Assembly: GCA_019634005.1 (NCBI GenBank)
Contig: JAHQWD010000003.1
Span: 67,725-131,724, forward strand
Direction: 5' to 3'
Length of the DNA: 64,000 nucleotides
From: Candidatus Kaiserbacteria bacterium
Lineage (GTDB): Bacteria > Patescibacteriota > Minisyncoccia > Phycocordibacterales > UBA918
Shown here: piece by piece, positions 20,301 to 57,733 of the stretch
How positions within the stretch are numbered: position 1 is the stretch's first letter
Layout: each line of letters starts with the position of its first letter
Notes under the pieces: model-generated
Told to the model about the DNA's origin: nothing
Databases searched by the model: none
Seen by the model: the letters and a program-made list of their open reading frames with translations, nothing else
Made by a program: the position numbers and the translations under genes

Positions 20301-20317
20301 GACTATTCCTTTCTAGT

Positions 20318-21124
20318 CTAGCCCCAGACAGCATTGAAAAACTTACGGAGAGGCCCGTGGTCTTTCTTGCTGTCTGCGATCTTTTGTTCGATTTGGTTGG
20401 CAAGACGATTAGTCGCCTTGTCATATCGTTGCGGCAATGACCGCACCGAGTTGATAGCTTTTGCCACCAAGTCTTTGGTCTTCTGATTCGGATGTATTGG
20501 AAGCAGGATACCTTGGGACTTGAATTGTTTTGCGAGTCTTTTATAACCCGCGAGTGGCGTAGGACTTTCTTTGATCGTCCTGATCACATATTCCATGAAG
20601 ATGACACCCTCGTGGACTTTTTCGGTCCGACGTGGCGGCTCCTTCATCTGGAAGTGGATGCTTTCGTTGCCGAACCTTGACTTCAACTCCGTCTGTACAT
20701 CGGCAGATTCCCTCGCCGTGACGGAGAAAGAAGAACCGTTACGTCCTTCCATACTGAAGGTCGCCTCAGCAACTTTTGGTTTGATTGTTCGGGGTCCTCG
20801 TTTCACCACAAACAGGCGAAACTCGTTCCAACAGAACAGATTGATCAGGTACTCCTCGAGGGTACCTCCCTTAAGCGATGCCCATTTGTGGAATTCCGCG
20901 AAGATGTCGAACGCATCTTCGAGCCCAGGTATCTCCGATACCTTTAGCATGATCGAGTTGAACTGCCGTTCATCCTCGCCACCACGGAGACCATAGACTC
21001 CTTTTGCAATTGCTGAGGCGTCATTGGCTGGTTTTTCCCCACGAAACGCAGAGAGAACATCAGCCGCGGAGTGCATATGGCTAAGAAGGCCCAGCATCTC
21101 ACCAATCTTGTCAGCTATTTTCAT
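20318..21124 (-). CDS. Hypothetical protein (268 aa)
   Basis: Clean ORF, co-oriented with and 17 nt from the previous gene. Confidence 0.5.
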   Translation of the reverse strand: MKIADKIGEMLGLLSHMHSAADVLSAFRGEKPANDASAIAKGVYGLRGGEDERQFNSIMLKVSEIPGLEDAFDIFAEFHKWASLKGGTLEEYLINLFCWNEFRLFVVKRGPRTIKPKVAEATFSMEGRNGSSFSVTARESADVQTELKSRFGNESIHFQMKEPPRRTEKVHEGVIFMEYVIRTIKESPTPLAGYKRLAKQFKSQGILLPIHPNQKTKDLVAKAINSVRSLPQRYDKATNRLANQIEQKIADSKKDHGPLRKFFNAVWG

Positions 21125-43290: not shown

Positions 43291-43299
43291 AATAAGCAC

Positions 43300-44103
43300 A
43301 TGGCATGGAGAAAGTCGCGCAGGCGACGCACGAACACACGATCACTACGACACCAGCTTCTCTTCGGAGGAGGCTTTCTCCTTATATTGGGAGGACTTTT
43401 ATATGGAGTGTGGTATGGCACACACCATGATGCGGTTGCGCTCTCAGAGATAAGGGTCTCTGGTGGAGCAACTGTCTCCCATGAGAAAGTAGAACAGGTG
43501 GCATGGAGAGCGCTCTCTGGTAATCAGTATGGTCTTATCTCAAAACGCTTTGCGTATCTCTATCCACAACAGGAGGTCATAGATGCTGTCTCACATATTC
43601 CACGAGTACACGGTGTGTCCGTAACACGTGATGGAAAAATACTCTCTATACATTTTGAAGAATATATTCCCACCGCACTGTGGTGTGACTCTCTGGCAAG
43701 TATCTCGTGTGTTTTCCTTACTGAAGATGGTTTTGGATTTGATAAAGCTCCACAACTTACGGGTGGTGTATTTGTTCGCTATGTAACAGCACTTGCATCG
43801 TCAACTCCTCATACACAGGCGATTGATCGAGACATCATGGTTGAAAGCACTTCTTTTATTCACGCGGTGCGGGAAGCATATGGTTTTGGAATAGCTCAGG
43901 TGGTGTATACAGCAGATGGTGACGTTGAGTATCATAGGGAAATAGGAGGCGTCATTCTCACAACACAAGAAGAAAGTGTCGAGGAAGCTCTTGAAAACTT
44001 AGACACAGTATTATCATCTGAAGAGTTTTCTCACTTACGTACCGAACCGTTTCTGTATGTAGATCTTCGGTTTGGGAATCGGGTCTTCGTAAAAGAAGAC
44101 TAA
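43300..44103 (+). CDS. Membrane protein with FtsQ/DivIB-like topology (basic N-terminus, one TM helix, POTRA-like region)
   Basis: RKSRRRRTNTR tail, a TM helix, then I..I.V.G......E.V-type beta strands. Inferred weakly from the pattern. Confidence 0.3.
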   Translation: MAWRKSRRRRTNTRSLRHQLLFGGGFLLILGGLLYGVWYGTHHDAVALSEIRVSGGATVSHEKVEQVAWRALSGNQYGLISKRFAYLYPQQEVIDAVSHIPRVHGVSVTRDGKILSIHFEEYIPTALWCDSLASISCVFLTEDGFGFDKAPQLTGGVFVRYVTALASSTPHTQAIDRDIMVESTSFIHAVREAYGFGIAQVVYTADGDVEYHREIGGVILTTQEESVEEALENLDTVLSSEEFSHLRTEPFLYVDLRFGNRVFVKED

Positions 44104-44120
44104 TGTGATACCCTCTGCGC

Positions 44121-45119
44121 ATGTCTTTTTGGCAAAAACTTCCAAAACCTATTTTTGTACTCGCACCGATGGCAGATGTCACCGATGCGCCATTTCGACG
44201 TCTGATTGCAAAGTATTCTGCACATGAGCGTACCGACGGAACTATCGGTGGAGCTGATGTAACCTGGACAGAGTTCGTCTCTGCCGATGGTCTCGCGCTT
44301 GCGCCTGAGAAGGGGAGACAAAAACTGCTCGCAGATCTTATTTATTCTGAAGAAGAGCGACCAATTGTCGCGCAGCTATTTTCTTCTAACCCAGAACATA
44401 TGGAATCCGCAGCACGACTGTGTAAGGAGTTGGGATACGATGGGATAGACATAAACATGGGGTGCCCAGATCGTTCGATAGAAAAGCAAGGGTGTGGCTC
44501 TGCCATGATTAAAAACCCAGAGAACGCACGTGAGATTATCCGTGCCGCAAAACGAGGAACAGGGGATCTCCCTGTGTCCGTGAAGACCCGTCTTGGGTAT
44601 AACAAAGACCAGTTGGAAGAGTGGCTCCCAGAACTTTTGAAAGAGAATCCAGCGGTGGTGACCGTTCACGCACGGACACGGAAGGAGATGTCCAAGGTAC
44701 CTGCGCGATGGGAGCGAATTAAACGAGCAGTAGAAATACGAGACGAGCTTGGAAGCGACACCCTTATCTTTGGAAACGGAGATGCCTTGTCTCTCGAAGA
44801 CGCGAAAAAGAAAGTACAAGAGACTGGAGCAGATGGCGTCATGCTCGGTCGTGCTATCTTTGGTAATCCATGGCTTTTCCACCCAGAGAAGGATCTCTCG
44901 AACGTGTCACTTGAGGAACGGCTTTCTGTCATGGTGGAGCATACAAAGTTGTTTGTAGAACTCTTGCCGCACAAAAACTTTGCGGTGATGAAGAAACACT
45001 ATAAGGCGTATGCACACGGCTTTGATGGCGCCAAAGAACTGCGTATGGAACTGATGGAGACAAATACCCCTGAGGAAGTTGAAGAGATTGTAAAGGGATT
45101 TTTAAAGGACAAGGTGTGA
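44121..45119 (+). CDS. tRNA-dihydrouridine synthase
   Basis: VLAPMADVTDAPFRRL at the N-terminus of the Dus TIM barrel. Catalytic Cys region NMGCP. Confidence 0.85.
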   Translation: MSFWQKLPKPIFVLAPMADVTDAPFRRLIAKYSAHERTDGTIGGADVTWTEFVSADGLALAPEKGRQKLLADLIYSEEERPIVAQLFSSNPEHMESAARLCKELGYDGIDINMGCPDRSIEKQGCGSAMIKNPENAREIIRAAKRGTGDLPVSVKTRLGYNKDQLEEWLPELLKENPAVVTVHARTRKEMSKVPARWERIKRAVEIRDELGSDTLIFGNGDALSLEDAKKKVQETGADGVMLGRAIFGNPWLFHPEKDLSNVSLEERLSVMVEHTKLFVELLPHKNFAVMKKHYKAYAHGFDGAKELRMELMETNTPEEVEEIVKGFLKDKV

Positions 45120-45886
45120 TAATTTATAGCAATATGGATACCTCACTACAATTCAGACCAGAAGACAGACTCCAGAAGACATGGATACCTGAAGGAACTG
45201 AGGAGTACAAGATATTCAAGCTCATTACCCTTGAGAACAGATACCTTGGAAAACTTCTTAAGGATAGATACCAACTTGGAAACGGAGGCCTGGTGCTTGA
45301 TGTTGGGGGACGTAAGGGTGATATTGCACTTGAACTTCAAAAACCTGAGTACATTCACATTATCGACCCAGACCCTACGCTCACATTGGATTTTACCCCC
45401 GCGCAGTTTTGGAATGAGCGTATCCAGGATGTTGAACTTGAAGATAAGTATAGACTGATTATCTGCAGCCACGTACTTGGATATCTCGGAACACAAAATG
45501 TGCAAGACGAAGTATTTGACCAACTCATTAATGCTCTTGCACCTGGCGGCACTCTCGTTCTCTTCTTCAACAGAAATACACGATACGTTGGTGAACTACT
45601 AGAATTCTCAAAAGAACTCGGTGTTGATGGACACTATGACTACTTTGATGAGTCTCTTGTTGAGCGGCTTGATAAGACAGAATTTGATATCTCACACGAA
45701 GATGTAACATTCAATTTAAGCTATGAGACGTTCGAAGATTTGTCCCGCTGTTGTTGGTTTCTTTATGGAGCACGGGATCAAGATATAGAGAAAGTTGCCA
45801 GGATGTTCCTACCACGTCTCAAACAGGATCTAGAAGAGTCTGAAATTGAGATTGCTGAACGAGTGCTACTGATTACTAGGAGGTAG
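45116..45886 (+). CDS. Class I SAM-dependent methyltransferase-like
   Basis: Motif I VLDVGGRKGDIALEL. Confidence 0.55.
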   Translation: MIIYSNMDTSLQFRPEDRLQKTWIPEGTEEYKIFKLITLENRYLGKLLKDRYQLGNGGLVLDVGGRKGDIALELQKPEYIHIIDPDPTLTLDFTPAQFWNERIQDVELEDKYRLIICSHVLGYLGTQNVQDEVFDQLINALAPGGTLVLFFNRNTRYVGELLEFSKELGVDGHYDYFDESLVERLDKTEFDISHEDVTFNLSYETFEDLSRCCWFLYGARDQDIEKVARMFLPRLKQDLEESEIEIAERVLLITRR

Positions 45887-45939
45887 ATTGTGAGTAACTT
45901 CCTCAAGACGCACTCGTAAGTCTTTGGTATACTCTACCC

Positions 45940-46206
45940 ATGAGTGAAGTATTGCAAGCAAACGCATTCTTTATGATCACCTCGGCTGCGGTCATTGTGT
46001 TCACACTCTTTGTATGTGTCGCGGTAATCTATGTGATTCTGATCCTCAGGTCTATCAAACGGATTCTTGGACGCATCGAAGAGGGAACAGAGGTGCTTTC
46101 AGAAGACATGGCGTCTGTACGCAGGGCATTTGCTCGACATGGTCTTATTCGAGGGATTCTTGCTGCTATCTTTAGCACACGAAAGTCTCGTGATGATGAG
46201 GAATAA
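45940..46206 (+). CDS. Small membrane protein (DUF948-like)
   Basis: A single TM helix followed by an amphipathic helix. Commonly paired with YtxH-like genes. Confidence 0.45.
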   Translation: MSEVLQANAFFMITSAAVIVFTLFVCVAVIYVILILRSIKRILGRIEEGTEVLSEDMASVRRAFARHGLIRGILAAIFSTRKSRDDEE

Positions 46207-46221
46207 TAATTTTTTAATTCT

Positions 46222-46647
46222 ATGGCAAAGCGTAAAACAACAAAGAAAAAGGATAATACGATGCGTAATGTAGGTATTGGGCTCGGGACTGCGGCAGTTG
46301 CAGCAGCGGGTGCGTACTTCTTTTACGGATCTCCAAATGCAAAGAAGAATCGTCAGAAGCTAAAGAGCTGGATGATGATGGCGAAAGCTGAGGTGCTTGA
46401 GGCACTCGAGGAGGCAAAGAGCATGACGCAAGAAGAGTACGAAGACCTTGTTGAGGATGTGGCAGAGGCATATGCGGTACTTCAGACTGCTACTAAGAAG
46501 GATATTCTAGACTTCAAGAAGGAAATGAAAGATCACTGGAAGAAAATTGAGAAGAGTACAAAGACAAAGGTGAAGAAGGCAGCGACGAAAGCAACAAAGC
46601 GCGCAAAGAAGGTTGCAAAGAAAGTTGTCGCAAAGCGTAAGAAATAA
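46222..46647 (+). CDS. YtxH-like lysine-rich protein
   Basis: N-terminal Gly/Ala hydrophobic segment, then Lys/Glu-rich helices and a K-rich tail. Confidence 0.45.
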   Translation: MAKRKTTKKKDNTMRNVGIGLGTAAVAAAGAYFFYGSPNAKKNRQKLKSWMMMAKAEVLEALEEAKSMTQEEYEDLVEDVAEAYAVLQTATKKDILDFKKEMKDHWKKIEKSTKTKVKKAATKATKRAKKVAKKVVAKRKK

Positions 46648-47463
46648 ATGCAGGCACGGGTCACCATTGGCGTACTGATAGTGGGAGCGATTCTCTTTGG
46701 GGCGCTCCTCCGTACCGAGAGTGTGACCTCACTGCTCCGTATAGAAAATACCGCTGGTACTGCCAGTGGTATTTTGCCGCCTGCGGTTTCTGCACGAAAT
46801 GTTCTCGTCTATGATGTTACGGCAGACGATGTGGTATATGGACGAAAGACAAAAGAGACTCGTCCCATTGCATCTATTACAAAACTGTTTACCGCATACG
46901 CCGCGTATACAAGTGCAAGGCTTGATACAGTAGGAAATATTACGTGGGCAGACCTCCAAACTGAAGGAGATGCGGGATCGCTTTCATATGGTGAGGTGTA
47001 CACTCCTCGAGAACTTCTGTTCCCGCTCCTCCTCCTTTCTTCAAATGATGCGGGAGCGGCACTCCTTCGTATGATTGGTGAAGGCGTGTTTCAAGAAAGG
47101 ATTGCGACGTTGGTTGCAAATGCAGAACTCTCTCATACAAGTATTGTGGATAGTACGGGACTTTCTTCTCAAAATGTGTCGACGGCAGAAGATCTCAAAA
47201 GGCTTGTTTTGTATCTCCAAGAGTATGCACCGCATCTCTTGGACATCACACGTCTCTCTTCGTATCAGGGTACACACGCGGGGTGGCTGAACAACAATCC
47301 AGGACAAAAGTTTGATGGTTGGGTTGGAGGAAAACACGGGTATCTCCCGTCCGCAGGACGAACCTTTGTAGGGATCTTCGAGCAAGGTCACACATATGTA
47401 GTAGTACTGCTGGGGAGTGCAGATCTGTCGGAGGATCTGGAAGTCGTACTGAAAGAGTTGTAA
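46648..47463 (+). CDS. D-alanyl-D-alanine carboxypeptidase (S11-like penicillin-binding protein)
   Basis: SxxK in ASITKLFT, SxN in LLSSNDAG, and a KxG-like GGKHGY. Confidence 0.7.
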   Translation: MQARVTIGVLIVGAILFGALLRTESVTSLLRIENTAGTASGILPPAVSARNVLVYDVTADDVVYGRKTKETRPIASITKLFTAYAAYTSARLDTVGNITWADLQTEGDAGSLSYGEVYTPRELLFPLLLLSSNDAGAALLRMIGEGVFQERIATLVANAELSHTSIVDSTGLSSQNVSTAEDLKRLVLYLQEYAPHLLDITRLSSYQGTHAGWLNNNPGQKFDGWVGGKHGYLPSAGRTFVGIFEQGHTYVVVLLGSADLSEDLEVVLKEL

Positions 47464-47464
47464 A

Positions 47465-47486
47465 AGTGTAGCATATCTGCTACACT
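47465..47486 (+). promoter_or_regulatory. Perfect palindrome AGTGTAGCA-tatc-TGCTACACT immediately upstream of the antitoxin gene; candidate toxin-antitoxin operator
   Basis: Seen in sequence, 7 nt before the antitoxin start. Confidence 0.4.
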
Positions 47487-47492
47487 GTAGAC

Positions 47493-47717
47493 ATGACTAC
47501 AACTAATCCACGAATTCATATAACAACTGACAATGTTACCCGCACACTTCTTCAGAAGCTGGCGAAGCGTGACGACACATCACTCGCAAGTAAGGCGGAG
47601 GAGTATCTTCGTATTGGGCTTGCACTCGCAGAAGATATGGAACTTTCAGCCATTGCAGCAGAGCGTATGAAGACTCCTCGATCAAAGTATATTTCACATG
47701 ATGCTGTATGGGGTTAG
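47493..47717 (+). CDS. Antitoxin (ribbon-helix-helix/CopG-like) of a type II toxin-antitoxin pair
   Basis: Small, precedes and overlaps the RelE/ParE toxin by 10 nt. N-terminal beta-strand plus helices. Confidence 0.55.
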   Translation: MTTTNPRIHITTDNVTRTLLQKLAKRDDTSLASKAEEYLRIGLALAEDMELSAIAAERMKTPRSKYISHDAVWG

Positions 47718-47998
47718 ACGTCAACTATCATCCGCATGTGCTGTCACACGATATTCCAGATCTTTCAAAGACAATTCGTACGCGAATTAAAAAAGCAATA
47801 GAGAAAAAACTGTGTTCACATCCTGAGATATTTGGCGAACCTCTCAGAGGCTCGCTCGTGCCGCTGTGGAAGTTACGCGTAGGTGATTATCGCATTGTGT
47901 ATGATTTTAAGGGTGTGACTGTTTATATTCATGCAATAGGTCATCGAAAGCATATCTATACGCGTATTGCTCCCAAACGAACGCGGTTAGAAGACTAG
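47708..47998 (+). CDS. RelE/ParE-family toxin
   Basis: PLWKLRVGDYRIVYDFKGVTVYIHAIGHRK is typical of RelE/ParE. Confidence 0.75.
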   Translation: MGLDVNYHPHVLSHDIPDLSKTIRTRIKKAIEKKLCSHPEIFGEPLRGSLVPLWKLRVGDYRIVYDFKGVTVYIHAIGHRKHIYTRIAPKRTRLED

Positions 47999-48017
47999 AT
48001 AATGCTATACTACTCCC

Positions 48018-49049
48018 ATGACAGACCACGTAGCACTGTATCGGAAATATAGACCAGAGGCGTTTAAGGATGTACGGAATCAAGACCACATTGTGTCTGT
48101 ACTGGAAGGCGCAGTGAATAAAGGAAACATCCCGCATGCACTTCTCTTTACTGGTTCACGTGGTACGGGGAAAACGACCGTCGCACGTATTTTTGCACAC
48201 GCTATCGGTGCCAAGGACGTCGACATATACGAAATTGATGGTGCATCGAATCGGAAGATAGAACATGCACGAGAACTGCTCGAACAAGTACATACACACC
48301 CCTATGAGTCTCCATACAAGGTGTACATCATTGATGAGGTACATATGCTCACGAAAGAGGCGTTCAATGCACTTTTGAAGACACTTGAAGAGCCACCAGA
48401 GTATGTGGTCTTTATCCTTGCCACGACAGAGCAGGATAAGGTACTTGATACCATTATCTCTCGATGTCAGGTGTTCCAGTTTCGTGCGCCAGGACGTGAT
48501 GTACTCCGAGATACGGTACTTTCCGTTGCAAAGAAAGAGAAGTTCAAACTTGATGCAGAGGCGGCAGACCTGATTGCAACTGCGGCAGATGGCTCCTTCC
48601 GTGATGCACTTGGTGTGACACAGAAAGTGATCATGGCATCAGATGGTGACAAAGCGTCTGTGGATGAAGTTGCACATATTGTCGGGGCACCAAAAACTGC
48701 ACTGCTTCTTAATCTCATCTCTGCACTGCATGAGAAGGATGTAGAGAAGGGACTCCAAGTGGTGCAGGATGCAGTTGATGCACATGTGGATATGAAACTC
48801 TTCGTGCGCCTCCTTCTTGAAAGAGTGCGTGCGATTATCCTTGCGCGTCATACCAAGAATGACGAGGTACTCTCTGGATACTCCGAGGAAGAACAGAAAT
48901 TGTTTGGGGAATATGCAAAGGACCTCAAGTCCCCGATACATTCGCACTTGTTGCTCCGTCTCCTTTCTGCATCTGCGGAAACGGGGAAGACGTATCTATC
49001 ACACCTTCCGTTGGAACTTGCGGTGGTGGAGTTGTGTGCTCCGAAGTAG
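48018..49049 (+). CDS. DNA polymerase III clamp-loader AAA+ subunit (gamma/tau-like, dnaX; possibly delta-prime)
   Basis: YRPEAFKDVRNQDHIV, Walker A GSRGTGKTT, Walker B DEVHML, SRC motif SRCQVF. Confidence 0.7.
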   Translation: MTDHVALYRKYRPEAFKDVRNQDHIVSVLEGAVNKGNIPHALLFTGSRGTGKTTVARIFAHAIGAKDVDIYEIDGASNRKIEHARELLEQVHTHPYESPYKVYIIDEVHMLTKEAFNALLKTLEEPPEYVVFILATTEQDKVLDTIISRCQVFQFRAPGRDVLRDTVLSVAKKEKFKLDAEAADLIATAADGSFRDALGVTQKVIMASDGDKASVDEVAHIVGAPKTALLLNLISALHEKDVEKGLQVVQDAVDAHVDMKLFVRLLLERVRAIILARHTKNDEVLSGYSEEEQKLFGEYAKDLKSPIHSHLLLRLLSASAETGKTYLSHLPLELAVVELCAPK

Positions 49050-49073
49050 GTTTTGTGGTATAAAAGTGAACAT

Positions 49074-49143
49074 TGCCCGATCGTCTAATGGCAGGACGCT
49101 TGGTTTTGGTCCAAGAAATTGGGGTTCGAGTCCCTGTCGGGCA
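49074..49143 (+). tRNA. tRNA-Gln (anticodon UUG), CCA not encoded
   Basis: Acceptor tgcccga/tcgggca, anticodon stem-loop cttgg-ttTTGgt-ccaag, T-arm tgggg-ttcgagt-ccctg. Hmm, T-arm read as tgggg... by eye. Discriminator G. Confidence 0.75.
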
Positions 49144-49316
49144 GCTGTCAAGGAGGGGACACCGTCTAGGGTGTGACATCCGCCTTTATTTTGAGTCATA
49201 TTTTACGAGCAAAAAGTTCTGAACTTTTGTGGTTTTTATGCACACCCCAAAGGTATTTCCGAACTCTCTTCAGCATGTGATTATGCAGGTGTTCTATAAG
49301 CATAATCACCGCACAT

Positions 49317-49505
49317 ATGCAGAAACGTAGAGTGGTCGTCAGAGACCCCAAAGATCTCCCACACATCGATCCCAAGGATTACGTCTTCTCTGAAGAAACG
49401 GTCAGGTCACTGACCGAACTCGCACTGCTTCTCAACGATATTGAGATGGAGGAGAGGGCTGAGGCGGAGAAGGGAAACAAGAAACATATTAACCATAGAC
49501 ACTGA
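49317..49505 (+). CDS. Small hypothetical ORF (62 aa) preceded by an 11-bp inverted repeat
   Basis: The ORF is immediately downstream of gtgattatgc-N13-gcataatcac. There is no clear SD. Confidence 0.2.
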   Translation: MQKRRVVVRDPKDLPHIDPKDYVFSEETVRSLTELALLLNDIEMEERAEAEKGNKKHINHRH

Positions 49506-49595
49506 CACCCAGTTTCGCCATCGGTAGCTTCTATACATCTTTAGGTGTAGAATTCAGTTATTACCAACTCATATTGCAAATTAAGGCGAGCATGT

Positions 49596-52241
49596 ATGGC
49601 CGCAGACCCCATTGATGATATCGAAAAATGGTCCCAAGACCTTGTCCCTTGGAAACGAGACGTCTTGAGGCGACTAGCAACAGGCGCAGAGTTTTCTGAG
49701 GCTGACTACAGTTCGACGCTTTCAATGGTCAAAGAAATTGCAGGCTTTAAGCTCTCCTCCAAGCCACCGGCCGCCATACCTTTTACGAAAAGCCATTTTG
49801 CTGCAGGCGCTACTACACCACTTACCCTTAAGGGCATCACCAACATCCAGAACATCAATCAACTTACCGCTAATGCCCAGCTAGATTTTTGCCCTAAAGC
49901 ATTGACGATTATTTATGGTCGGAACGGAAGCGGAAAGAGTGGCTTTGCCCGCATCTTAAGGACTGCATGTCGGACGAGAATAGAGAACCCAGCAAAACTC
50001 AAAGTTCTATCTGACGTATATGGAGACAGCTCGGGCCCCCAAGCCGCTGATATCGTAATAGACAACGGTAGTGGTGACACATCAATAAAATGGACACCAG
50101 GCCAAACTGCCATCGCAGAGCTGATGCAAGTTGCGGTATTCGATACAGTCTCTGCACAACTGTATGTGGACAATGGAAATCAAATCCGTTTTCTCCCGTT
50201 CGGGCTAGCGTTGCCGCATAGGCTCAATACCGTATGTTTGCAGTTGAAAGAAATACTGGAGGCTGAGCGAAAATCTGAAGTTGGTAACAAGGTGAGTATG
50301 ACGGCAATTAACTTCGACGTCACGCAAGATACTAAGGCACAGAAATTTGAAAGATCGTTAAGTCAAGCTACTACTGATACCGCGATTGCTACAGCAGCAA
50401 AGTTTACCTCCGACGACGAAGCTCGGCTGGAAGAAATTCGGAAGGCTCTATCTGCAGGAGACGCTGCGCTTGCCGATCTGACGGCATTTGAGAAATGGTT
50501 AAGGGACTTAGCGACAGAATGCGAAGAAGCGGAAAAAGGATTCTCAGATAAAGAATTAAAGGCACTTGAAAAGATATACGAAGAGGCACGGTCTGCCCGT
50601 ACCGCGGCAACTGTTGCTGCAAAAGCAATGTTCACTGATGAGCCATTGCCCGGCGTGGGAAGCAAGAGCTGGAGAGCTCTTTGGCATGCTGCTCGCGATT
50701 TCTCTGTACAAGAAGCCTATGTTGACCGCGATTTTCCAATAACCCTTGAAGACGACGCTGCAGCGGCATGTGTACTGTGTCAACAGCCTTTAACTTCTGA
50801 TGCCTCTGCTCGCATGAAGCGCTTCCAGAAGTATTTAGACGACACACTCGGCGTGGCCGCTACCAAAGCTGAAGGAATTGTATCCGAAGCGCAGAAGAAC
50901 CTTAAGACGATTGAATTGCTGGAAGCGTCCGACTTTGAGGCTCGCGTCGAACAGGTAAGGAAACGAAACAATTCTCTCGCAGATGCGCTGGCAACTTTTA
51001 AAACCACGGTAAAGAAACGGAGAGCAATTGCGTCCTCTTACTTATCTGGTGAAGAGGCCGAAACCGCGCCATTGCTGGTGAGCGTTGTTAAAGCACTTAC
51101 AGAACTGCTACAAAAAATTCAGAAGGAGAAAGAAGCGCTAGAGAAAGCAAACAATGCCCCCGATCGGGCGCTACTTGTTGCGGAAAAAGCGGAGCTGGAA
51201 GATCTAAAAACACTCGCAGCGAATAAGGACCGCCTCACAACCCGACGAGACCTACTCCGCCTAGATCATGCATATGCCAAGGCACTTACTCAAGTTGGGA
51301 CTACGGGTATTACTCGGCGCGCAAACGATCTTATCGATACCCACCTTACAAGCGCGGTTGTAAAGCAGTTTGATACAGAGCGTGAACGTTTTGAAATCAT
51401 GCACCTTAAGATAGGTCTGGCTCGACGAAGTGGGCAAACAAAAGCAGAGTTTGATGTTAGCCCGCAGACCAAATTGACGAGGGTCACCTCCGAAATACTT
51501 AGTGAGGGAGAACAGCGGGCGTTGGCACTAGCTGGTTTTTTGACTGAAGTCGAATTGACTGATGGTAAAGGCCCAATTGTAATTGACGACCCAGTATCTT
51601 CGCTGGACCGAGATAGAAGTATCAAGGTTGCTGAACGAATTGCAGAAGAAGCGACTAAACGTCAGGTGATTGTCTTTACCCATGACATGGTCTTTTTCAA
51701 TGAGTTAAGCAAGGCTGCAGACTCGCTGGGTATTGAACCCGTAACCGTTGGCCTTTTCCGAGATAAGGACGCAGCAGGGAAAGTAGACCCAGCGGGGGTA
51801 TCTTGGAAGGGTCTAAATGTTTCCAAGCGCATAGGTAAAATTAAGAATGATTCTGCATCACTGGCCAAATTGTACAAGACGAGTCCTTCTGACTACGAGA
51901 TGCGAGTAAAGGGCCTGTATGGTCGATTACGCGACACCTATGAGCGCGCTGTTGAAGAGGTGATCTTTAACGATATCGTGCGCCGAGGAACGGATGTGAT
52001 CCAAACACAGTTGCTTCGGAAAGTACGTTTGTCTGATGGGCTAGCAATTCGCTTTTATGAAGGGATGACCAAGGCAAATACGCACAGTCATGACAATCCC
52101 GCTTCTGACACCGTGCCAGTCCCCACGCCAGACGAATTCAAAAATGATATCGCTGCTTTTGAAAAGTTGATTGTTGATCTCAAGGCAGAGGGTGTGGCTG
52201 CCGAGGCCGCACGACCTCAAATGAAACCCAAAAAGGATTAA
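49596..52241 (+). CDS. Rad50/RloC-like ABC ATPase with coiled-coil CxxC zinc hook and a C-terminal R-x3-E...H module (putative anticodon-nuclease-type defense protein)
   Basis: Walker A IIYGRNGSGKSGF (about aa 105). A roughly 500-aa insertion with heptad-like Ala/Glu/Lys-rich stretches. CVLC at about aa 392 in its middle. ABC signature LSEGEQRALALA, Walker B IVIDDPVSSLD, H-loop VIVFTHD. The C-terminal 190 aa contains GRLRDTYERAVEE and THSH. Confidence 0.6.
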   Translation: MAADPIDDIEKWSQDLVPWKRDVLRRLATGAEFSEADYSSTLSMVKEIAGFKLSSKPPAAIPFTKSHFAAGATTPLTLKGITNIQNINQLTANAQLDFCPKALTIIYGRNGSGKSGFARILRTACRTRIENPAKLKVLSDVYGDSSGPQAADIVIDNGSGDTSIKWTPGQTAIAELMQVAVFDTVSAQLYVDNGNQIRFLPFGLALPHRLNTVCLQLKEILEAERKSEVGNKVSMTAINFDVTQDTKAQKFERSLSQATTDTAIATAAKFTSDDEARLEEIRKALSAGDAALADLTAFEKWLRDLATECEEAEKGFSDKELKALEKIYEEARSARTAATVAAKAMFTDEPLPGVGSKSWRALWHAARDFSVQEAYVDRDFPITLEDDAAAACVLCQQPLTSDASARMKRFQKYLDDTLGVAATKAEGIVSEAQKNLKTIELLEASDFEARVEQVRKRNNSLADALATFKTTVKKRRAIASSYLSGEEAETAPLLVSVVKALTELLQKIQKEKEALEKANNAPDRALLVAEKAELEDLKTLAANKDRLTTRRDLLRLDHAYAKALTQVGTTGITRRANDLIDTHLTSAVVKQFDTERERFEIMHLKIGLARRSGQTKAEFDVSPQTKLTRVTSEILSEGEQRALALAGFLTEVELTDGKGPIVIDDPVSSLDRDRSIKVAERIAEEATKRQVIVFTHDMVFFNELSKAADSLGIEPVTVGLFRDKDAAGKVDPAGVSWKGLNVSKRIGKIKNDSASLAKLYKTSPSDYEMRVKGLYGRLRDTYERAVEEVIFNDIVRRGTDVIQTQLLRKVRLSDGLAIRFYEGMTKANTHSHDNPASDTVPVPTPDEFKNDIAAFEKLIVDLKAEGVAAEAARPQMKPKKD

Positions 52242-52277
52242 TCAATACATAAATCAAGCTTTCAGCCCCGAAACCAA

Positions 52278-52868
52278 ATGACTTCATTCTTATATTTTGC
52301 ATACGGCTCAAACATGTTGACTGAACGTCTGGTTAGACGTTGCGAGAGCGCTTCTGTGGTAGGTGTTGCCGAGGTTTCTTCATGTCAGTTGCGCTTTAAC
52401 AAGATCAGCAAGTCTGATGGCTCAGGTAAAGGTTCTATAGAGAGCACTGACCAACAGTCTGATAAAGTCTATGGGGTTGTCTTTCGGATTAATTCCGACG
52501 AATTAGACGATCTAGATAAGTTTGAAGGATATGGTAGCGGCTATGATCGTGACGACAAATTGCCAGCCACACTAGTCGGTAAAGGTCTGCCCATTGAAGC
52601 AACAACGTACGTTGCTACGGATATTGATGACAAGTTATACCCTTATGACTGGTACCTAGCGCTAGTTATTGCAGGAGCTAGAGAACACCATCTTCCTATA
52701 GAATATGTCGCAGCGGTTGAAAATGTGACCCATGTTCCTGATCCTGATGAAAATCGCAGATCACGGAAGGAAGCACTTGATATCCTAAAGGCAACAGACA
52801 ATTGGGATCTATATCTCAGGTTGGTAAAGGCTGCTAACCGAGGAGTGGGAACCGGGGTGGGGTATTAG
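52278..52868 (+). CDS. Gamma-glutamyl cyclotransferase (GGCT/AIG2)-like protein with an approx. 80-aa C-terminal extension
   Basis: N-terminal LYFAYGSNM...RL..R, downstream VYGVVFRI...LD..EG....Y.R. Only 36 nt after the RloC-like gene, on the same strand. Confidence 0.65.
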   Translation: MTSFLYFAYGSNMLTERLVRRCESASVVGVAEVSSCQLRFNKISKSDGSGKGSIESTDQQSDKVYGVVFRINSDELDDLDKFEGYGSGYDRDDKLPATLVGKGLPIEATTYVATDIDDKLYPYDWYLALVIAGAREHHLPIEYVAAVENVTHVPDPDENRRSRKEALDILKATDNWDLYLRLVKAANRGVGTGVGY

Positions 52869-53040
52869 CTCTCCTCAAGCAACGCCTTCAATTCCACAAT
52901 GCTTTCCTTAATCTCGCAAGGATTGACAAGTTCTGAAATCCATGCTGTGGGGCAGCAGCTTAGAGGTAGGTTCGGTTTCCGAACTGCATCGAAAGTCACC
53001 ATACAGTTATTGAAGACGCCGCAGGCGAATCCAGACAGAA

Positions 53041-53067
53041 AGACCGTCCGAAAGGACGGCTTTTTTG
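53041..53067 (+). terminator. Intrinsic terminator (ccgtcc-GAAA-ggacgg plus TTTTTT) after the GGCT-like gene
   Basis: Seen in sequence. Confidence 0.6.
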
Positions 53068-53106
53068 TTAAACAAATTATGCCAAGTTAGACATTCTTTG
53101 ATTGAA

Positions 53107-53467
53107 ATGGAAAATACGAAATCGCTCGAAGATTTTACACCTGAGTTGAGAAAGAAGATTCTCGAGAAGGATGGTTATAGATGTGTTGTATGTGGACGGG
53201 GGAGAGATGAAGGAGTGGAACTTCATGTGGACCACATCAAGGCAAAAAGATCTTGGAGGGAAAGCAACGTATGAGAATGGTCAAACACTGTGCGCGCAAC
53301 ATAATTTCTTGAAAAAGAACCTCAAGCAGACAGAAATGGGGAAGAAACTCCTTATAAGACTCTATGAACTTTCACAGACAAAGAGAGATAAAAAGTTGAT
53401 GGAATTTACTACAGAAATCCTTGCGGTCTTTGAGAAGAATAATATTGATGACCAGATAAAATGGTAA
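53107..53467 (+). pseudogene. HNH endonuclease, disrupted by a +1 frameshift at an A5 run (about 53245-53249)
   Basis: Frame 1 reads CVVCGRG...ELHVDHIKAK. Frame 2 continues DLGGKATYENGQTLCAQHNFLKKN. The two halves form one HNH motif. Confidence 0.6.
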
Positions 53468-53476
53468 GATAGACCA

Positions 53477-54553
53477 ATGACAAATGTACTCATTGTGGGA
53501 GCGGGTCCTACAGGACTTACGACTGCTTTAGAACTGACGCGGCAAGGTATTGTGCCAGACATCGTTGATGCGAAGGAGAGTCCCTCGTGGAAATCTCGAG
53601 CAGTTGCAATCCTTCCGCGAAGTATCGAGATATTAAATCGAACGGGAGTGGGTGACCACCTCATACGGGAAGGTGTACGGATCACAAGAGCACATATTCG
53701 ACGAGGGAAGCGATCGCTCCTTGATATTGATCTCTCAAAACTTTTAGATAAAGAAGAGCAGGTCATCGCGCTCGCACAGAATCGAACGGAAATACTCATG
53801 AGCAAACAGCTTGAATCTATGGGTGTCTCTGTCCGATACGATACTAAAGTCACGTCAGTGGCTACATCGGAGACATCTGCAACAGTGACCTTTGCAGATG
53901 GAACAACAAAGACCTATGACTGGGTGGTTGGTGCAGATGGCGTCTTTTCTACTGTTCGAGATTCCGTGCATATTTCATATAATGGATACGAACTTGATGA
54001 AGAGTGGTCTATTGCAGATGTGGAGGTCGCTGAAGAACAGCATCATGGCACTATTAATGCTTGGCTACTTGAAGGTGAGCATAAAACACGAGACGCACTC
54101 GTGATGATCCCTATTGAACGGAATCGGATCCGACTTATCTCTTCAACATCTGATAGCCTTGCAGCACTCCCACTTACTCTAGATGTACAAGATATACGTC
54201 GCACAGGTACATTTAAGATCTCAGTCAGACAGGCAGAGCAGTACATAAAAGGAAGGGTGATTCTTGCGGGAGATGCTGCACACACACATTCTCCCGTCGG
54301 TGGACGAGGTATGAATCTAGGTATTGAGGATGGGCAAGCGATAGCAGATGCGTTGGTGCACAATACCGTGCATACATATGAGGGTAAGAGAAAGCCAAAG
54401 GCTACGAGGGTGATGCGTGGTACTGAGAAGGCACGTAAACTAATCACATCAAACAATCTAGGCATTGTCTTCGGTATCTATGTTGTGACATGGTGTATTC
54501 AACATAGTTATTTTTTACAAAAAAAGTTCGCGAAGAATCTTGCAAAACTCTAA
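53477..54553 (+). CDS. FAD-dependent monooxygenase (UbiH/PheA-type flavoprotein hydroxylase)
   Basis: GxGxxG VLIVGAGPTGLTTALEL, the DG motif VVGADGVFSTVR, and GD-x6-P ILAGDAAHTHSPVGGRGMNLG. Confidence 0.8.
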   Translation: MTNVLIVGAGPTGLTTALELTRQGIVPDIVDAKESPSWKSRAVAILPRSIEILNRTGVGDHLIREGVRITRAHIRRGKRSLLDIDLSKLLDKEEQVIALAQNRTEILMSKQLESMGVSVRYDTKVTSVATSETSATVTFADGTTKTYDWVVGADGVFSTVRDSVHISYNGYELDEEWSIADVEVAEEQHHGTINAWLLEGEHKTRDALVMIPIERNRIRLISSTSDSLAALPLTLDVQDIRRTGTFKISVRQAEQYIKGRVILAGDAAHTHSPVGGRGMNLGIEDGQAIADALVHNTVHTYEGKRKPKATRVMRGTEKARKLITSNNLGIVFGIYVVTWCIQHSYFLQKKFAKNLAKL

Positions 54554-54705
54554 TAAAATAGTTCCTCTTCAAGAAAACTTGACGAAAAGATAAACTTCGA
54601 TACACTAAGATCACACTATGATTTCATTTACACATTACATGCCAAAGCGATGGACAAACCTCGGGAAGGTGTGTTTTGTTGGTATGTAATCTGGAGAAAC
54701 TACAA

Positions 54706-54750
54706 GAACCAAAAATGCCCTTCTCACCCGAGAAGGGCATTTTTGGTTCT
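54706..54750. terminator. Perfect 44-nt palindrome / bidirectional terminator (aaccaaaaatgcccttctc-accc-gagaagggcatttttggtt)
   Basis: Seen in sequence. Confidence 0.6.
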
Positions 54751-54846
54751 TGTATCTCCGTTGTCGATAGGCTGGTGGCGTCTAGAATCCACCAGCCTGG
54801 CGCCAGCGGGGCGCCATTGATCTTTTACAGGAGAGGAGAAGGGCAT

Positions 54847-55908
54847 ATGCCTATCGTTATTGAGAATAACTATGGATCGGTGTCACTTGCCGATCTAGTT
54901 GCATTGCAAAACCAAGGTTTTTCAGTGTTGAAATCTCCACATGTGGGGAACCAGCATCCGAGCAATCTTGTCTGTGCGGCACTCAAGATACCAATGGAAA
55001 TGGTCTCGTTCACACAAGGTGTACGAGACACCAACTTTCATCCACACCTGCTCATCAAAGATGGTGTTGGCAAGCCACTCTATGAGGCAGAAATATGGAC
55101 ACCATTCGGAGTGCTCTCTTGCGGAACATCTGTAACGGAGTTTCATCAGGAATCTCTGAAGACAGTGTTCCCACAAACAGATATCTGCACGGACATCGAA
55201 CGTATGCAGTCTGCACCAGAGCTTGCTGAGATTGTGTTACGGGAGACGAACCAGGCGGTAAAGCAACTCTGGTATCGTAAGACATGCGCCGAGGGCATCG
55301 TTACATCTGTGAAGGGTGTCAATCACTTGTCTGAGCAGGCTTTGGAAACACAGGTATTTCAGATCACGAATCCTACAGATGGTTGGATTATACCGAATCG
55401 TGTACATGCACTCTTTGATTTCGTATGGCAGTCTCTTAGCTCGGGTCGCGACACGATATATCATCTATCTGGTCCACAGATGGTTGGCTATATCGGCGGC
55501 ATCAAAAAAAGCCTCTGCGCAGGCTATGATGCGATTCGGAAAGTTATACCAGATCTTCCAGAGGTATTGATTGTCCGTGTTGTGCCTGTGGCGCCATGTC
55601 GTTTTGTGACACTCTGCTCACGTGCGGGAGCGCTTGCGGCGATCAGTGATGTGGTCCGTTGGTATGAGGCATTGCCGAACGAAGATCGTCGGTATGCACG
55701 AGACCGTTTTACGGAAGTGGTGACAGCATATCCAGAATTTACGCAACCAATCACTTCGGGTGCGTATATTTCTCAGCATGACATCGCCTCGGCGGGTGAC
55801 CTACTTCTCGACTCGTGGATGCTTGAGACGCCGCTATCTCGAGTTGGAGCAATCTACCAAAATCTGATGAAGGCACAAGAGATATGTGCGCATCGGAAAG
55901 CGGCTTAA
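54847..55908 (+). CDS. Hypothetical protein (354 aa), start reassigned downstream of the palindromic terminator
   Basis: The ATG at 54847 is preceded by GGAGAGGAGAAGGG. The listed ORF start at 54676 would read through the terminator. No motif recognised. Confidence 0.45.
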   Translation: MPIVIENNYGSVSLADLVALQNQGFSVLKSPHVGNQHPSNLVCAALKIPMEMVSFTQGVRDTNFHPHLLIKDGVGKPLYEAEIWTPFGVLSCGTSVTEFHQESLKTVFPQTDICTDIERMQSAPELAEIVLRETNQAVKQLWYRKTCAEGIVTSVKGVNHLSEQALETQVFQITNPTDGWIIPNRVHALFDFVWQSLSSGRDTIYHLSGPQMVGYIGGIKKSLCAGYDAIRKVIPDLPEVLIVRVVPVAPCRFVTLCSRAGALAAISDVVRWYEALPNEDRRYARDRFTEVVTAYPEFTQPITSGAYISQHDIASAGDLLLDSWMLETPLSRVGAIYQNLMKAQEICAHRKAA

Positions 55909-55909
55909 C

Positions 55910-55947
55910 AATTCCAGCGCTACGTGCGCGTGGCGCTGGAATTTTAA
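55910..55947 (+). terminator. Intrinsic terminator (aattccagcgc-tacgtgcgcgt-ggcgctggaatt plus T-run)
   Basis: Seen in sequence. Confidence 0.5.
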
Positions 55948-55964
55948 TACTAAATTAAAACACT

Positions 55965-56903
55965 ATGAAAATTTTTGATCTACACCAAGACCTGCTCATG
56001 CACGTACGCTTTAGAGATCAGTTTGGACAGACTGACCAGACGAGCTTTGAAGCTATAGAGGAAAGCGATATTGATCTCGTGGTTGCGACTGCGTTTCCAA
56101 CTCCACCAAATGATGACCACACCCACGAGAGTGTTCCGGCACTTATCACAGAGGAATTGGAGATGTATCAAGAGTTTATAAAGAGAAACCCAACATGGCA
56201 GCTAGTCTTAAATGCGGCCGATCTTGAAAAGGAAGGACAAAAGATACTACTCCACCTTGAGGGGCTCAACGTATTTGATGGCTCTTCTTCAGCATGGGAA
56301 CAGCTCGATGCATGGAGGAATCTTGGTGTCCGCTCCATCAGTAGTCACTGGATTATTCAAAATGATCTCGGAGGCGGCACGCTACAACCGGAAGAGGGTC
56401 TCACGGAGCTTGGGAAGGAACTTATCACCTATCTTGAGAAGAACAATGTGGTGTTTGATATGGCGCACATGAGCAGGACTTCTTTCTGGAACGCTGTTAA
56501 AGTTATACGTCGTCCAATCTACATTAGTCACGGGAACGCTGATGCGGTGTGTAACAATGTGCGCAATTATACTGATGAGCAACTTAAGGTGGTAGCAGAG
56601 ACAGACGGTGTGATCGGTGTTTTCTTCCCGAATACTTTTGTTGTTGGAAAAGAAAAAAAGAGCACCGTTTTGGATGTCGTTATGCACATCAACTACATTA
56701 AGAATCTTATTGGCATTAGGCACATCGCGTTAGGTAGTGATTTTGGAGGCATCATTACGGGCTGTGTAGAAGGATTATCACACGTACGTGATTATCCAAA
56801 TCTCATTACAGCACTTTCCGATGCAGGGTATACGGATGAGGAGATAGAACAGATTACCTACAGAAATGCAAAGAGAGTCTTAAGAGAACACTTGGAGGGA
56901 TAA
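55965..56903 (+). CDS. Membrane dipeptidase (peptidase family M19)
   Basis: DLHQD N-terminal metal motif, FDMAHMS, ISHGNA, ALGSDFGG, the M19 pattern. Confidence 0.7.
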   Translation: MKIFDLHQDLLMHVRFRDQFGQTDQTSFEAIEESDIDLVVATAFPTPPNDDHTHESVPALITEELEMYQEFIKRNPTWQLVLNAADLEKEGQKILLHLEGLNVFDGSSSAWEQLDAWRNLGVRSISSHWIIQNDLGGGTLQPEEGLTELGKELITYLEKNNVVFDMAHMSRTSFWNAVKVIRRPIYISHGNADAVCNNVRNYTDEQLKVVAETDGVIGVFFPNTFVVGKEKKSTVLDVVMHINYIKNLIGIRHIALGSDFGGIITGCVEGLSHVRDYPNLITALSDAGYTDEEIEQITYRNAKRVLREHLEG

Positions 56904-56932
56904 GGGAATCCAGTACGTGCTACACTACAGCT

Positions 56933-57325
56933 ATGAAAATACTTCTCATCGCACTCGCTATCTTCGCACTCTTCATTATTTTAGACCTCATCTGGTTCTC
57001 TGTTGCAGGAAACTTCTTTAAGAATGAGGTTGGTAGTATTGCACGTCTGGCAGCAGATGGTTCATGGAATGTGCGGTATCTTCCTGCAGCTCTCGTGTAC
57101 ATTCTTATGACCATCGGTCTCTTGGTTTTTGTGCTCCCGCAGGCACCGACATTAGTCTCCGCGTTTCTTTTCGGAGCACTCTTCGGATTCATTGCGTATG
57201 GTATCTATGACCTCACCAATCTTGCAACACTCTCCGCATGGACGGTTAAGTTTGTCGTTGTTGATATGGTGTGGGGGGCGTTTCTTTGTGGAATAGTCGC
57301 ACTGTGTGCAAGAGCGTTATCGTAA
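56933..57325 (+). CDS. Small integral membrane protein (DUF2177-like)
   Basis: 3-4 TM helices. Confidence 0.45.
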   Translation: MKILLIALAIFALFIILDLIWFSVAGNFFKNEVGSIARLAADGSWNVRYLPAALVYILMTIGLLVFVLPQAPTLVSAFLFGALFGFIAYGIYDLTNLATLSAWTVKFVVVDMVWGAFLCGIVALCARALS

Positions 57326-57334
57326 AATATAGGT

Positions 57335-57733
57335 ATGGAAAATGCAGCAACGTGGTATGAGATGTTAGTGCGTCCATCATGGGCTCCTCCCGCATGGCTC
57401 TTTGGTCCCGTGTGGACAGTACTCTATGTAATTATCGCAGTTTCATTTGCATATGTCCTATATTTGGGAATTACCAAAAGGATTCCTCGTATAGTCCTCC
57501 TCCCGTTTACACTAAACCTCATTTTTAACCTCCTCTTCTCTCCGATACAATTTGGATTACAGAATAATCTTCTCGCGACGGTAGATATCCTCCTTGTACT
57601 CGGGACGCTCATTTGGTCACTTATTGCCATCTATCCATACGCACGGTGGGTAAGTCTTGTGAATATTCCATACGTACTATGGGTCTCGTTTGCAACCGTG
57701 CTCCAGGTGACCATCACAGTACTTAATTTTTAG
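57335..57733 (+). CDS. TspO/MBR-family tryptophan-rich membrane protein (short)
   Basis: WYEMLVRPSWAPPAWLFGPVWTVLY motif. Confidence 0.7.
   Translation: MENAATWYEMLVRPSWAPPAWLFGPVWTVLYVIIAVSFAYVLYLGITKRIPRIVLLPFTLNLIFNLLFSPIQFGLQNNLLATVDILLVLGTLIWSLIAIYPYARWVSLVNIPYVLWVSFATVLQVTITVLNF

Follow-up and report, generated by a model that had tools for sequence, protein, structure and literature searches.

Does DNA that begins directly behind a tRNA gene and carries defense-type genes represent one genomic island integrated at that gene? This question is raised by a locus in a 64,000-nt stretch of Candidatus Kaiserbacteria DNA (contig JAHQWD010000003.1), referred to here as the window, in whose positions all coordinates are given. 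A preliminary description had read everything from the 3' end of the tRNA-Gln (UUG) gene (49074 to 49145, plus strand; ARAGORN, with an Rfam tRNA match of 55 bits) to a strong terminator at about 55947 as a single insertion of 6.8 kb, with the next gene, an M19 dipeptidase, as the core flank. The 3' ends of tRNA genes are classic integration sites, which counts in favor of such a view. The comparisons presented here point instead to a small accessory hotspot flanked by core genes, in which two separately acquired cassettes probably lie around a native monooxygenase gene dependent on flavin adenine dinucleotide (FAD). The host belongs to the class Paceibacteria within the Candidate Phyla Radiation (CPR), and the hotspot interval was read in one genus of it. 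The products of the window are identical to NCBI proteins MBX2866744 to MBX2866759, which are encoded on a contig of 379 kb.

Gene content downstream of tRNA-Gln in sister genomes

The sister genomes, whose dnaX shows an identity of 90% or more, were reached from the dnaX cluster at 90% identity, and the blocks, genes, and boundaries described below were compared with them by blastn. One of them (L170) represents a second species, while the other four (L171 to L174), recovered from four datasets, represent a third; L171 and L172 are 100% identical over 16 kb. Identities over nine shared proteins were 87.4% between the window and L170, 84.7% between the window and L171, and 84.2% between L170 and L171, and therefore the tree is ((window, L170), L171), with L171 as the outgroup. 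Scans of species representatives and JGI metagenomes added relatives only at dnaX identities of 64% or less, in which the order serS-x-dus-dnaX-tRNA-Gln is kept and nothing downstream is held in common. This order (serS, a variable 260-aa gene, dus, dnaX, and tRNA-Gln; window 42031 to 49145; loci L002 to L007, L061, and L082 to L092) is maintained across Paceibacteria down to a dnaX identity of ca. 46%, and tRNA-Gln ends the synteny block in every genome of these loci. The adjacency of dnaX and tRNA-Gln is present in most close and distant Paceibacteria relatives. The last conserved element of the block is tRNA-Gln, which bounds the variable spot on its left.

At 49146, one base beyond tRNA-Gln, homology to the window is lost in every sister. 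It resumes at 53476 to 54535 only in L171 to L174, where it corresponds to the FAD monooxygenase, and is back in all sisters at 56917/56918, at the gene for DUF2177. The DUF2177 and TspO genes (56917 to 57733, plus strand; blastn and gene tables) form the conserved right flank. Between the same flanks, the three species have three different gene contents. The order in L171 and L172 is dnaX, tRNA-Gln, FAD monooxygenase, an open reading frame (ORF) of 120/135 aa, DUF2177, and TspO. The same interval in L170 (8788 to 13146) holds two class II aminoacyl-tRNA synthetase (aaRS) paralogues (tRNA-synt_2), an S-adenosylmethionine (SAM)-dependent methyltransferase, and an S66 (LD-carboxypeptidase/MccF-type) peptidase, that is, another "synthetase-like plus peptidase" set. 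Farther away, the 7 kb that follow tRNA-Gln in distant relatives are different every time and include three DNA methylases, a BsaWI-type restriction enzyme, and a Zeta toxin. One of these relatives (L092) has a 231-aa ORF between dnaX and tRNA-Gln (1489 to 2184) and, after the tRNA, genes for a nucleotidyltransferase, a helix-turn-helix protein, and an MsrA/MsrB fusion, then DUF2177 and, at a greater distance, DUF1761, which weakly recalls the right-flank genes.

Two blocks on either side of the monooxygenase gene

The FAD-dependent monooxygenase gene (FAD_binding_3, 358 aa; 53477 to 54553, plus strand; PF01494, 2.5e-52) has an orthologue directly after tRNA-Gln in L171 to L174, with 79% amino acid identity, and its codon usage (z of -0.2) and tetranucleotide usage are ordinary. 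Since it stands at the same position in the window and in the outgroup, it is most simply ancestral, and the synteny suggests a native gene lying outside any insertion. With a syntenic gene in its middle, the extra DNA falls into two separate blocks rather than one. Block (a), of 4.3 kb (49147 to 53475, plus strand), is absent from all sisters, and its place in L171 and L172 is a spacer of ca. 135 bp between tRNA-Gln and the monooxygenase gene (alignments A1 and A2). Block (b), of 2.4 kb (54536 to 56916, plus strand; blastn breakpoints), is likewise missing from all sisters, and the 120/135-aa ORF takes its position in L171 and L172.

The gene inventory of the preliminary description was accurate, all the genes that it listed being present (a small ORF, the 881-aa ATPase, a GGCT-like protein, an HNH endonuclease, the monooxygenase, and a protein without recognizable motifs). 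Its single insertion including the monooxygenase does not survive the comparison with L171 to L174. It had proposed that in sister genomes, the M19 dipeptidase gene might follow tRNA-Gln directly; the content after tRNA-Gln does differ among them, but the M19 gene is not the one that follows in any sister. No M19 dipeptidase was found in any of them, either by blastn or in gene tables, so that this gene is part of block (b), and the conserved flank is DUF2177 at 56917.

Tests of tRNA-targeted integration

No second copy of the tRNA-Gln 3' end, whose direct repeat had been expected downstream, occurs in the 64-kb window at up to 3 mismatches, and local alignment of this segment gave nothing above the shuffled null in the window. 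Neither an integrase nor a recombinase was detected among all ORFs in the range from 49146 to 55950 (Pfam, NCBIfam, and PADLOC scans), where the noncoding gaps do not exceed 293 bp and are thus too small to hide an integrase remnant.

Composition is ordinary over most of the stretch. The claim that all of 49.1 to 55.9 kb is atypical was not confirmed, its GC content being 0.467, versus 0.464 ± 0.009 elsewhere in the window. A tetranucleotide scan (leave-one-out, 2-kb windows) identified the ATPase stretch at 49.5 to 52.5 kb as the most deviant of the window (z of ca. 3.2), while the part from 52.5 to 56 kb was at or below the average deviation. Codon usage distances followed the same pattern, with z values of 2.1 for the ATPase, 0.5 for the GGACT-like gene, and 1.0 and -0.1 for the 353-aa ORF and the M19 gene of block (b), so that the ATPase gene is the sole compositionally deviant part of the region. 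Elsewhere in the window, a 313-aa ORF on the minus strand (19359 to 20300) has the most deviant codon usage of all (z of 2.9; GC3 of 0.63 versus ca. 0.43). The neighboring ORF (20318 to 21124, minus strand) is also rich in GC3, neither has a Pfam match, and the pair at 19359 to 21124 may be another foreign patch.

The coincidence of the break with the end of the tRNA gene deserves separate comment. The 135-bp spacer of the sisters is unalignable to anything at ca. 80% DNA identity (alignments A1 and A2), and an insertion anywhere in the spacer would therefore seem to start at the tRNA end. The exact position of the break thus has little weight regarding mechanism, as it reflects alignability rather than integration. 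What remains of the proposed integration site is a variable region lying directly 3' of a tRNA, with neither integrase nor att repeat, and given the unalignable spacer, this adjacency is weak evidence.

A single island that integrated site specifically at the tRNA-Gln 3' end, extends from 49146 to ca. 55950, and is now decaying after the loss of its integrase and att sites would explain why all sisters cease to align one base beyond the tRNA and why block (a) carries a foreign defense gene together with a broken HNH gene. We consider it improbable, because the outgroup sister has the middle gene of the stretch in synteny, a right end at 55947 divides a conserved module (see below), and neither recombinase genes, room for their remnants, nor a tRNA-derived repeat was found; furthermore, composition is ordinary outside the ATPase gene, and a break at the tRNA is expected anyway among spacers that cannot be aligned at ca. 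80% identity. The islands inserted by tyrosine integrases at tRNA genes are similar to this stretch in that it starts right after a tRNA 3' end and holds foreign, noncore genes, but unlike them, it has no integrase or duplicated tRNA 3' segment, is not a single unit, and is mostly ordinary in composition.

An RloC-like ATPase with alphaproteobacterial relatives

The largest gene of block (a) encodes an SMC/Rad50-like ABC ATPase of 881 aa with a C-terminal helical domain (49596 to 52241, plus strand; AAA_13, 1.4e-26). It matches the PADLOC model of PDC-S06 (PDLC04891) over its full length (7.7e-180; residues 5 to 863 on positions 3 to 854 of a profile of 858), PDC-S06 being itself a computational candidate. 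The ABC motifs are complete, with a Walker A motif (G108RNGSGKS, 108 to 115), L635SEGEQ (635 to 640), D664DPVSSLD (664 to 671), and the switch histidine H696. All of these residues, along with a CxxC motif (C392-V-L-C395) and a C-terminal pattern consisting of R779-DTY-E783, 48 further residues, and S831-H832, are invariant in 40 homologues. The AlphaFold2 model (predicted local distance difference test [pLDDT] value of 77.6) has a split ABC head, helices over residues 202 to 598, and an all-helical C-terminal domain, and the CxxC motif lies in a nonhelical loop (374 to 400). Foldseek matches were to the heads of SMC, Rad50, JetC, and AriA.

Members of the RloC family combine ABC motifs with a coiled-coil insert bearing a CX2C zinc hook and a C-terminal Arg-X3-Glu-X36-52-His pattern, often with Ser before the His (PMC2610378), and RloC anticodon nucleases have been described in Geobacillus kaustophilus and Acinetobacter baylyi (PMC2610378, PMC3458546, and PMC3874168). 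The window protein shares the ABC motifs, the long helical insert with a central CxxC, and the existence as a stand-alone gene without a restriction-modification locus, and its Arg-x3-Glu-x48-(Ser)His falls within the published x36-52 range. One point of difference is that the PADLOC PrrC model matches only the ABC core (4.6e-9), the likeness to RloC being judged by the published motif pattern. Given the full-length PDC-S06 match and the complete motif pattern, the Rad50/RloC-like label of the preliminary description was well founded, and we regard the protein as a member of PDC-S06 and a candidate RloC-like anticodon nuclease, the nuclease activity being predicted from sequence and model.

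The best 120 homologues of the ATPase, nearly all of them full length, are 59 to 67% identical to it (the nearest, 60 to 66%), and all the named ones are alphaproteobacterial (Sphingopyxis, Xanthobacter, Ancylobacter, Ochrobactrum, Rhizobium, Mesorhizobium, Oricola, and Qipengyuania); no other CPR-named homologue is found among these 120. In contrast, dnaX is only ca. 35 to 42% identical to its counterparts in non-CPR bacteria. Within the alphaproteobacterial loci, the gene stands alone among changing, defense-like neighbors, such as SbcCD-like pairs, IS21 fragments, and a nucleotidyltransferase (Polbeta)-HEPN protein.

Since the contig belongs to a metagenome-assembled genome and the relatives of the ATPase are alphaproteobacterial, a misjoin of alphaproteobacterial DNA into a CPR contig has to be considered. 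It is very hard to reconcile with the data, and we give it almost no credence: the inserted DNA has a GC content of 48%, against 59 to 66% in the alphaproteobacterial loci, both junctions are located within short spacers between genes, and the genes follow one another closely in a single orientation. Along similar lines, a second assembly (Logan contig L001 from SRR12681089) has no mismatches with the window over 21 kb, all junctions included, although it may derive from the same reads as the window assembly.

The remaining genes of block (a) are smaller. A perfect 10-bp inverted repeat with a 13-nt spacer (GTGATTATGC ... GCATAATCAC; 49277 to 49286 and 49300 to 49309) lies just upstream of an orphan ORF of 62 aa (49317 to 49505, plus strand; NCBI hypothetical protein KTR10_02270, in a singleton cluster). 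The operator-like repeat reported earlier is therefore present, but by our own estimate, chance would produce ca. 2 such perfect repeats in a stretch of 64 kb, so that it is not significant alone; it could be an operator, for which only its position is suggestive. The 62-aa ORF has no match in any family library and was not seen upstream of ATPase homologues elsewhere. Downstream of the ATPase gene, a 196-aa protein of the GGACT/AIG2-like type (gamma-glutamyl cyclotransferase fold; 52278 to 52868, plus strand) scores above the cutoffs of PF13772 (1.4e-12; 48.3 bits for a cutoff of 27) and PF06094 (3.4e-10; 41 bits for a cutoff of 22.8). Its best homologues are 45 to 53% identical, the named ones being Alphaproteobacteria, and no linkage to the ATPase was found in the other genomes examined. 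A 63-aa ORF without a family match (52899 to 53090), ending at a hairpin with a T-run (53044 to 53059), separates it from the HNH gene and may be a gene remnant or plain spacer.

The HNH endonuclease gene (53107 to 53467, plus strand) is a pseudogene with a +1 frameshift caused by an extra A in an A5 run (53244 to 53248). As sequenced, the frame ends after 55 codons, while deletion of one A gives a protein of 119 aa that matches PF01844 above threshold (1.1e-8). The frameshift reported earlier is thus real, and it is identical in the second assembly. Together with the alphaproteobacterial affinity of the ATPase, it bears out the earlier impression of a foreign defense-type gene and a decayed HNH gene at a variable site.

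A ligase-like gene paired with an M19 dipeptidase

The limits of block (b) coincide exactly with a leader, a gene for an unannotated protein of 353 aa (54847 to 55908, plus strand), and a gene for an M19 membrane-type dipeptidase (312 aa; 55965 to 56903, plus strand; PF01244, 3.2e-74). The first protein had been described as having 354 aa and no recognizable motif; its length is 353 aa, and no Pfam or NCBIfam match was found for it or for 10 distant relatives, nor did a profile search against PDB sequences give anything meaningful. The AlphaFold2 model is of high confidence (pLDDT of 97.5 and predicted template modeling score of 0.94), with a Rossmann-like catalytic fold that is predicted to be of the class I aaRS/BshC-like HUP nucleotidyltransferase type. 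Relatives numbered 74 in a search of 5.8 billion clusters and 450 representative clusters (at 50% identity) in an exhaustive profile search, all of them unnamed or hypothetical and none with a Pfam domain. The database contains no orthologue that is more than 63% identical, despite the sampling of the sister species in four datasets.

Residues 31 to 35 read P-H-V-G-N, of which P31, H32, G34, and N35 show no variation and V33 hardly any; they lie in the first beta-alpha unit, a position that fits, and form a candidate HIGH-like motif. D61, N63, and P66 are also invariant, with H65 and H67 nearly so. This conservation fits an ATP-using, adenylate-forming ligase, a role that we infer. The protein has no detectable sequence similarity to BshC, MshC, or the class I aaRSs; it is far below BshC (540 aa) or an aaRS in length, lacks an anticodon-binding domain, and always occurs with M19.

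The M19 gene follows the homologue of the 353-aa gene directly in all four other loci (L175, L176/177, L178/179, and L181/182), which are on contigs of CPR-like size and gene content and have otherwise unrelated gene neighborhoods, and the pairwise identities of one protein run parallel to those of the other. In these four loci, a noncoding gap of ca. 270 to 290 nt is always found upstream of the 353-aa homologue. The strong terminator that had been taken as the right end of the island is a GC-rich hairpin after the stop codon of the 353-aa gene (55910 to 55943, plus strand; inverted repeat I10). Equivalent hairpins follow the homologous gene in three of the four other loci (L175, L176, and L181), so that the hairpin is an element inside the module rather than a boundary, and an end at ca. 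55947 would cut a conserved gene pair in half. A short AT-rich motif (AUACUAAAU-like) comes after the hairpin (55944 to 55964) and is also seen in L175, L176, and L181; it may be a -10 element that provides M19 with a promoter of its own.

A candidate cis-regulatory leader

The 293-bp spacer before the 353-aa gene, which contains a perfect 25-bp hairpin, holds a conserved structured 5' leader of ca. 270 nt (54579 to 54846, plus strand; alignments A3, A5, and A6; RNAalifold). It begins with a promoter-like TTGACG-16-TACACT (54579 to 54606), followed by stem A (54631 to 54680); hairpin B, long and terminator-like, with 25 perfect pairs between an A-run and a T-run (54701 to 54754); hairpin C, of 20 bp (54757 to 54810); hairpin C2, which is terminator-like, overlaps C, and is followed by TTGATCTTTT (54798 to 54816); and the ribosome-binding site GGAGAGGAG.

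The window leader was compared with those of L175 (ca. 5745 to 6000), L176 (ca. 5715 to 5980), L178 (ca. 5735 to 6000), and L181 (ca. 5740 to 6000). In this alignment, 87% of the cells are paired and 21 of the 55 pairs changed on both sides, the structure having been derived from the same five sequences, which are few. None of 500 shuffles reached the observed values, except for the count of further pair types (8 of 500), and slid controls gave at most 0.13 versus 0.35. Hairpin C was 97.9% paired, with 11 compensatory pairs. Rfam 15 (including T-boxes and riboswitches) has no family that matches the leader and nothing else at E values of ≤1 in the five loci, apart from a generic hairpin match to Plastid-psbA, below the gathering threshold, in the window and L178. 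No additional copies were retrieved from the sequences examined with a covariance model of the leader, and a scan of viral contigs gave none.

These data suggest a candidate new cis-regulatory RNA. It resembles attenuating leaders such as riboswitches, T-boxes, and protein-binding leaders in the ca. 270 nt between the promoter-like site and the ribosome-binding site, the terminator-like hairpins, and the mutual exclusion of hairpins C and C2; it differs from them in matching no Rfam family, T-boxes included, and in having two terminator-like hairpins in series, a comparison that covers five sequences. Neither the leader RNA nor the ligase-like family appears to have been described. It is possible, although we hold this view only tentatively, that block (b) represents an undescribed CPR-specific regulon, in which a new attenuator sensing a ligand, a tRNA, or a protein controls unrecognized class I aaRS/BshC-like ligases that are always paired with M19. 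The two class II aaRSs and the S66 peptidase of L170 at the same spot hint that modules of a "synthetase-like enzyme plus peptidase" may be interchangeable cargo there.

Gain, loss, and route of entry

Absence of both blocks from the sisters could also result from differential loss, if the common ancestor had the ATPase block, the ligase-M19 module, or both and the sisters deleted them in the course of streamlining. CPR genomes are streamlined and prone to loss. The ATPase gene matches the host in GC content (48%), and a divergence of 35% separates it from every sampled homologue, so it is not a very recent arrival, and the ligase-M19 module is otherwise found on contigs of CPR-like size and gene content. 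However, on the tree ((window, L170), L171), loss requires at least two independent events per block, and the L171 spacer of only ca. 135 bp contains no remnants. Besides, no other part of the window is as deviant in oligonucleotide signature as the ATPase gene still is, and the orthologues of the 353-aa protein in the database do not exceed 63% identity in spite of the four datasets in which the sisters were sampled. Loss is therefore, in our judgment, unlikely, if somewhat less so than the single island.

We thus favor acquisition of two cassettes at a hotspot. The ancestral content was probably tRNA-Gln, the FAD monooxygenase, a small ORF, and DUF2177, and this genome would hold two independently acquired cassettes, one on each side of the native monooxygenase. 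Cassette (a) would be a defense-type block from outside the CPR, with alphaproteobacterial-like relatives, which also brought the GGACT-like gene and the now dead HNH gene. Its working part would be the RloC-like Rad50/SMC-type ABC ATPase, with a putative CxxC zinc hook in the long helical insert and a C-terminal nuclease-like domain bearing the Arg-x3-Glu...Ser-His triad. By analogy with RloC, this protein may sense DNA damage or phage DNA by means of its ATPase, upon which tRNA anticodon loops would be cut and the infection aborted. Cassette (b) would be a self-contained module of the CPR type, consisting of the leader, the gene for a class I aaRS/BshC-like, presumably ATP-dependent ligase, and the M19 dipeptidase gene, and probably functioning, controlled by attenuation, in the ligation and hydrolysis of amino acids or peptides. 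The most likely route of entry of the cassettes was recombination within the conserved genes or spacers on either side, for instance, after DNA uptake, and entry by a tRNA-targeting integrase appears less likely. A DprA (DNA_processg_A) gene is located nearby in the window.

Several observations weigh against this reading. The sisters are species (about 77 to 84% DNA identity) and not strains, so that gain here is not fully separable from loss elsewhere. The alphaproteobacterial ATPase loci have a GC content of 59 to 66%, the window gene has one of 48%, and the nearest homologues are only ca. 65% identical, indicating that the true donor is unsampled or the transfer old. The canonical HEPN Rx4-6H spacing (discussed in PMC3710099) is not obvious in the ATPase, where the sequence reads K826-x5-H832; we infer the RloC-type activity from motifs, and PDC-S06 has the status of a candidate system. 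The ligase activity and the function of the leader are likewise predictions. Recombination scars were not identified, and an ancient integrase-mediated event that has since lost its traces could also have left the break at the tRNA end.

Other differences among the sisters occur in the vicinity, away from tRNAs. The segment from 47425 to 48002 has no counterpart in any sister and represents another small cassette insertion; within it, a ParE toxin gene with an overlapping upstream ORF of 74 aa, the presumed antitoxin (47493 to 47998), lies between an S11 peptidase gene and dnaX. A gene for a 256-aa SAM methyltransferase (45092 to 45879), between dus and the next gene, is present in L170 and absent from L171 to L174, which agrees with the window being closer to L170. 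These small indels indicate general flux at the level of cassettes.

Biological significance

Hotspots of defense and accessory genes flanked by core genes are known in Enterobacteria and Pseudomonas. The locus shares with them its conserved flanks (dnaX-tRNA-Gln and DUF2177-TspO), a content that varies per genome, defense cargo, and no need for dedicated mobility genes. It differs in being small (0.7 to 7.8 kb), in belonging to a reduced CPR genome, and in mixing a defense cassette with a metabolic module, the comparison extending over three species. In kind, the tRNA-Gln spot is ordinary, a variable accessory and defense spot rather than a classic island. Surveys have found that Paceibacteria carry dense, fast-changing defense repertoires (PMC12259885), and a defense gene at this position is therefore unsurprising.

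What the locus does illustrate is that an island-like stretch adjacent to a tRNA can be a patchwork in which two unrelated cassettes accompany a native gene. It displays gene flux at the cassette level in a reduced CPR genome, including an RloC-like abortive-infection candidate with alphaproteobacterial relatives, and these relatives could hint at the partners with which CPR episymbionts exchange DNA. The more original by-product is the module of leader, aaRS-like ligase, and M19 dipeptidase. The protein family, of ca. 450 clusters, has a confident fold yet no annotation, and the covarying leader matches no Rfam family; the leader and the protein family are the parts of this locus most worth following up.

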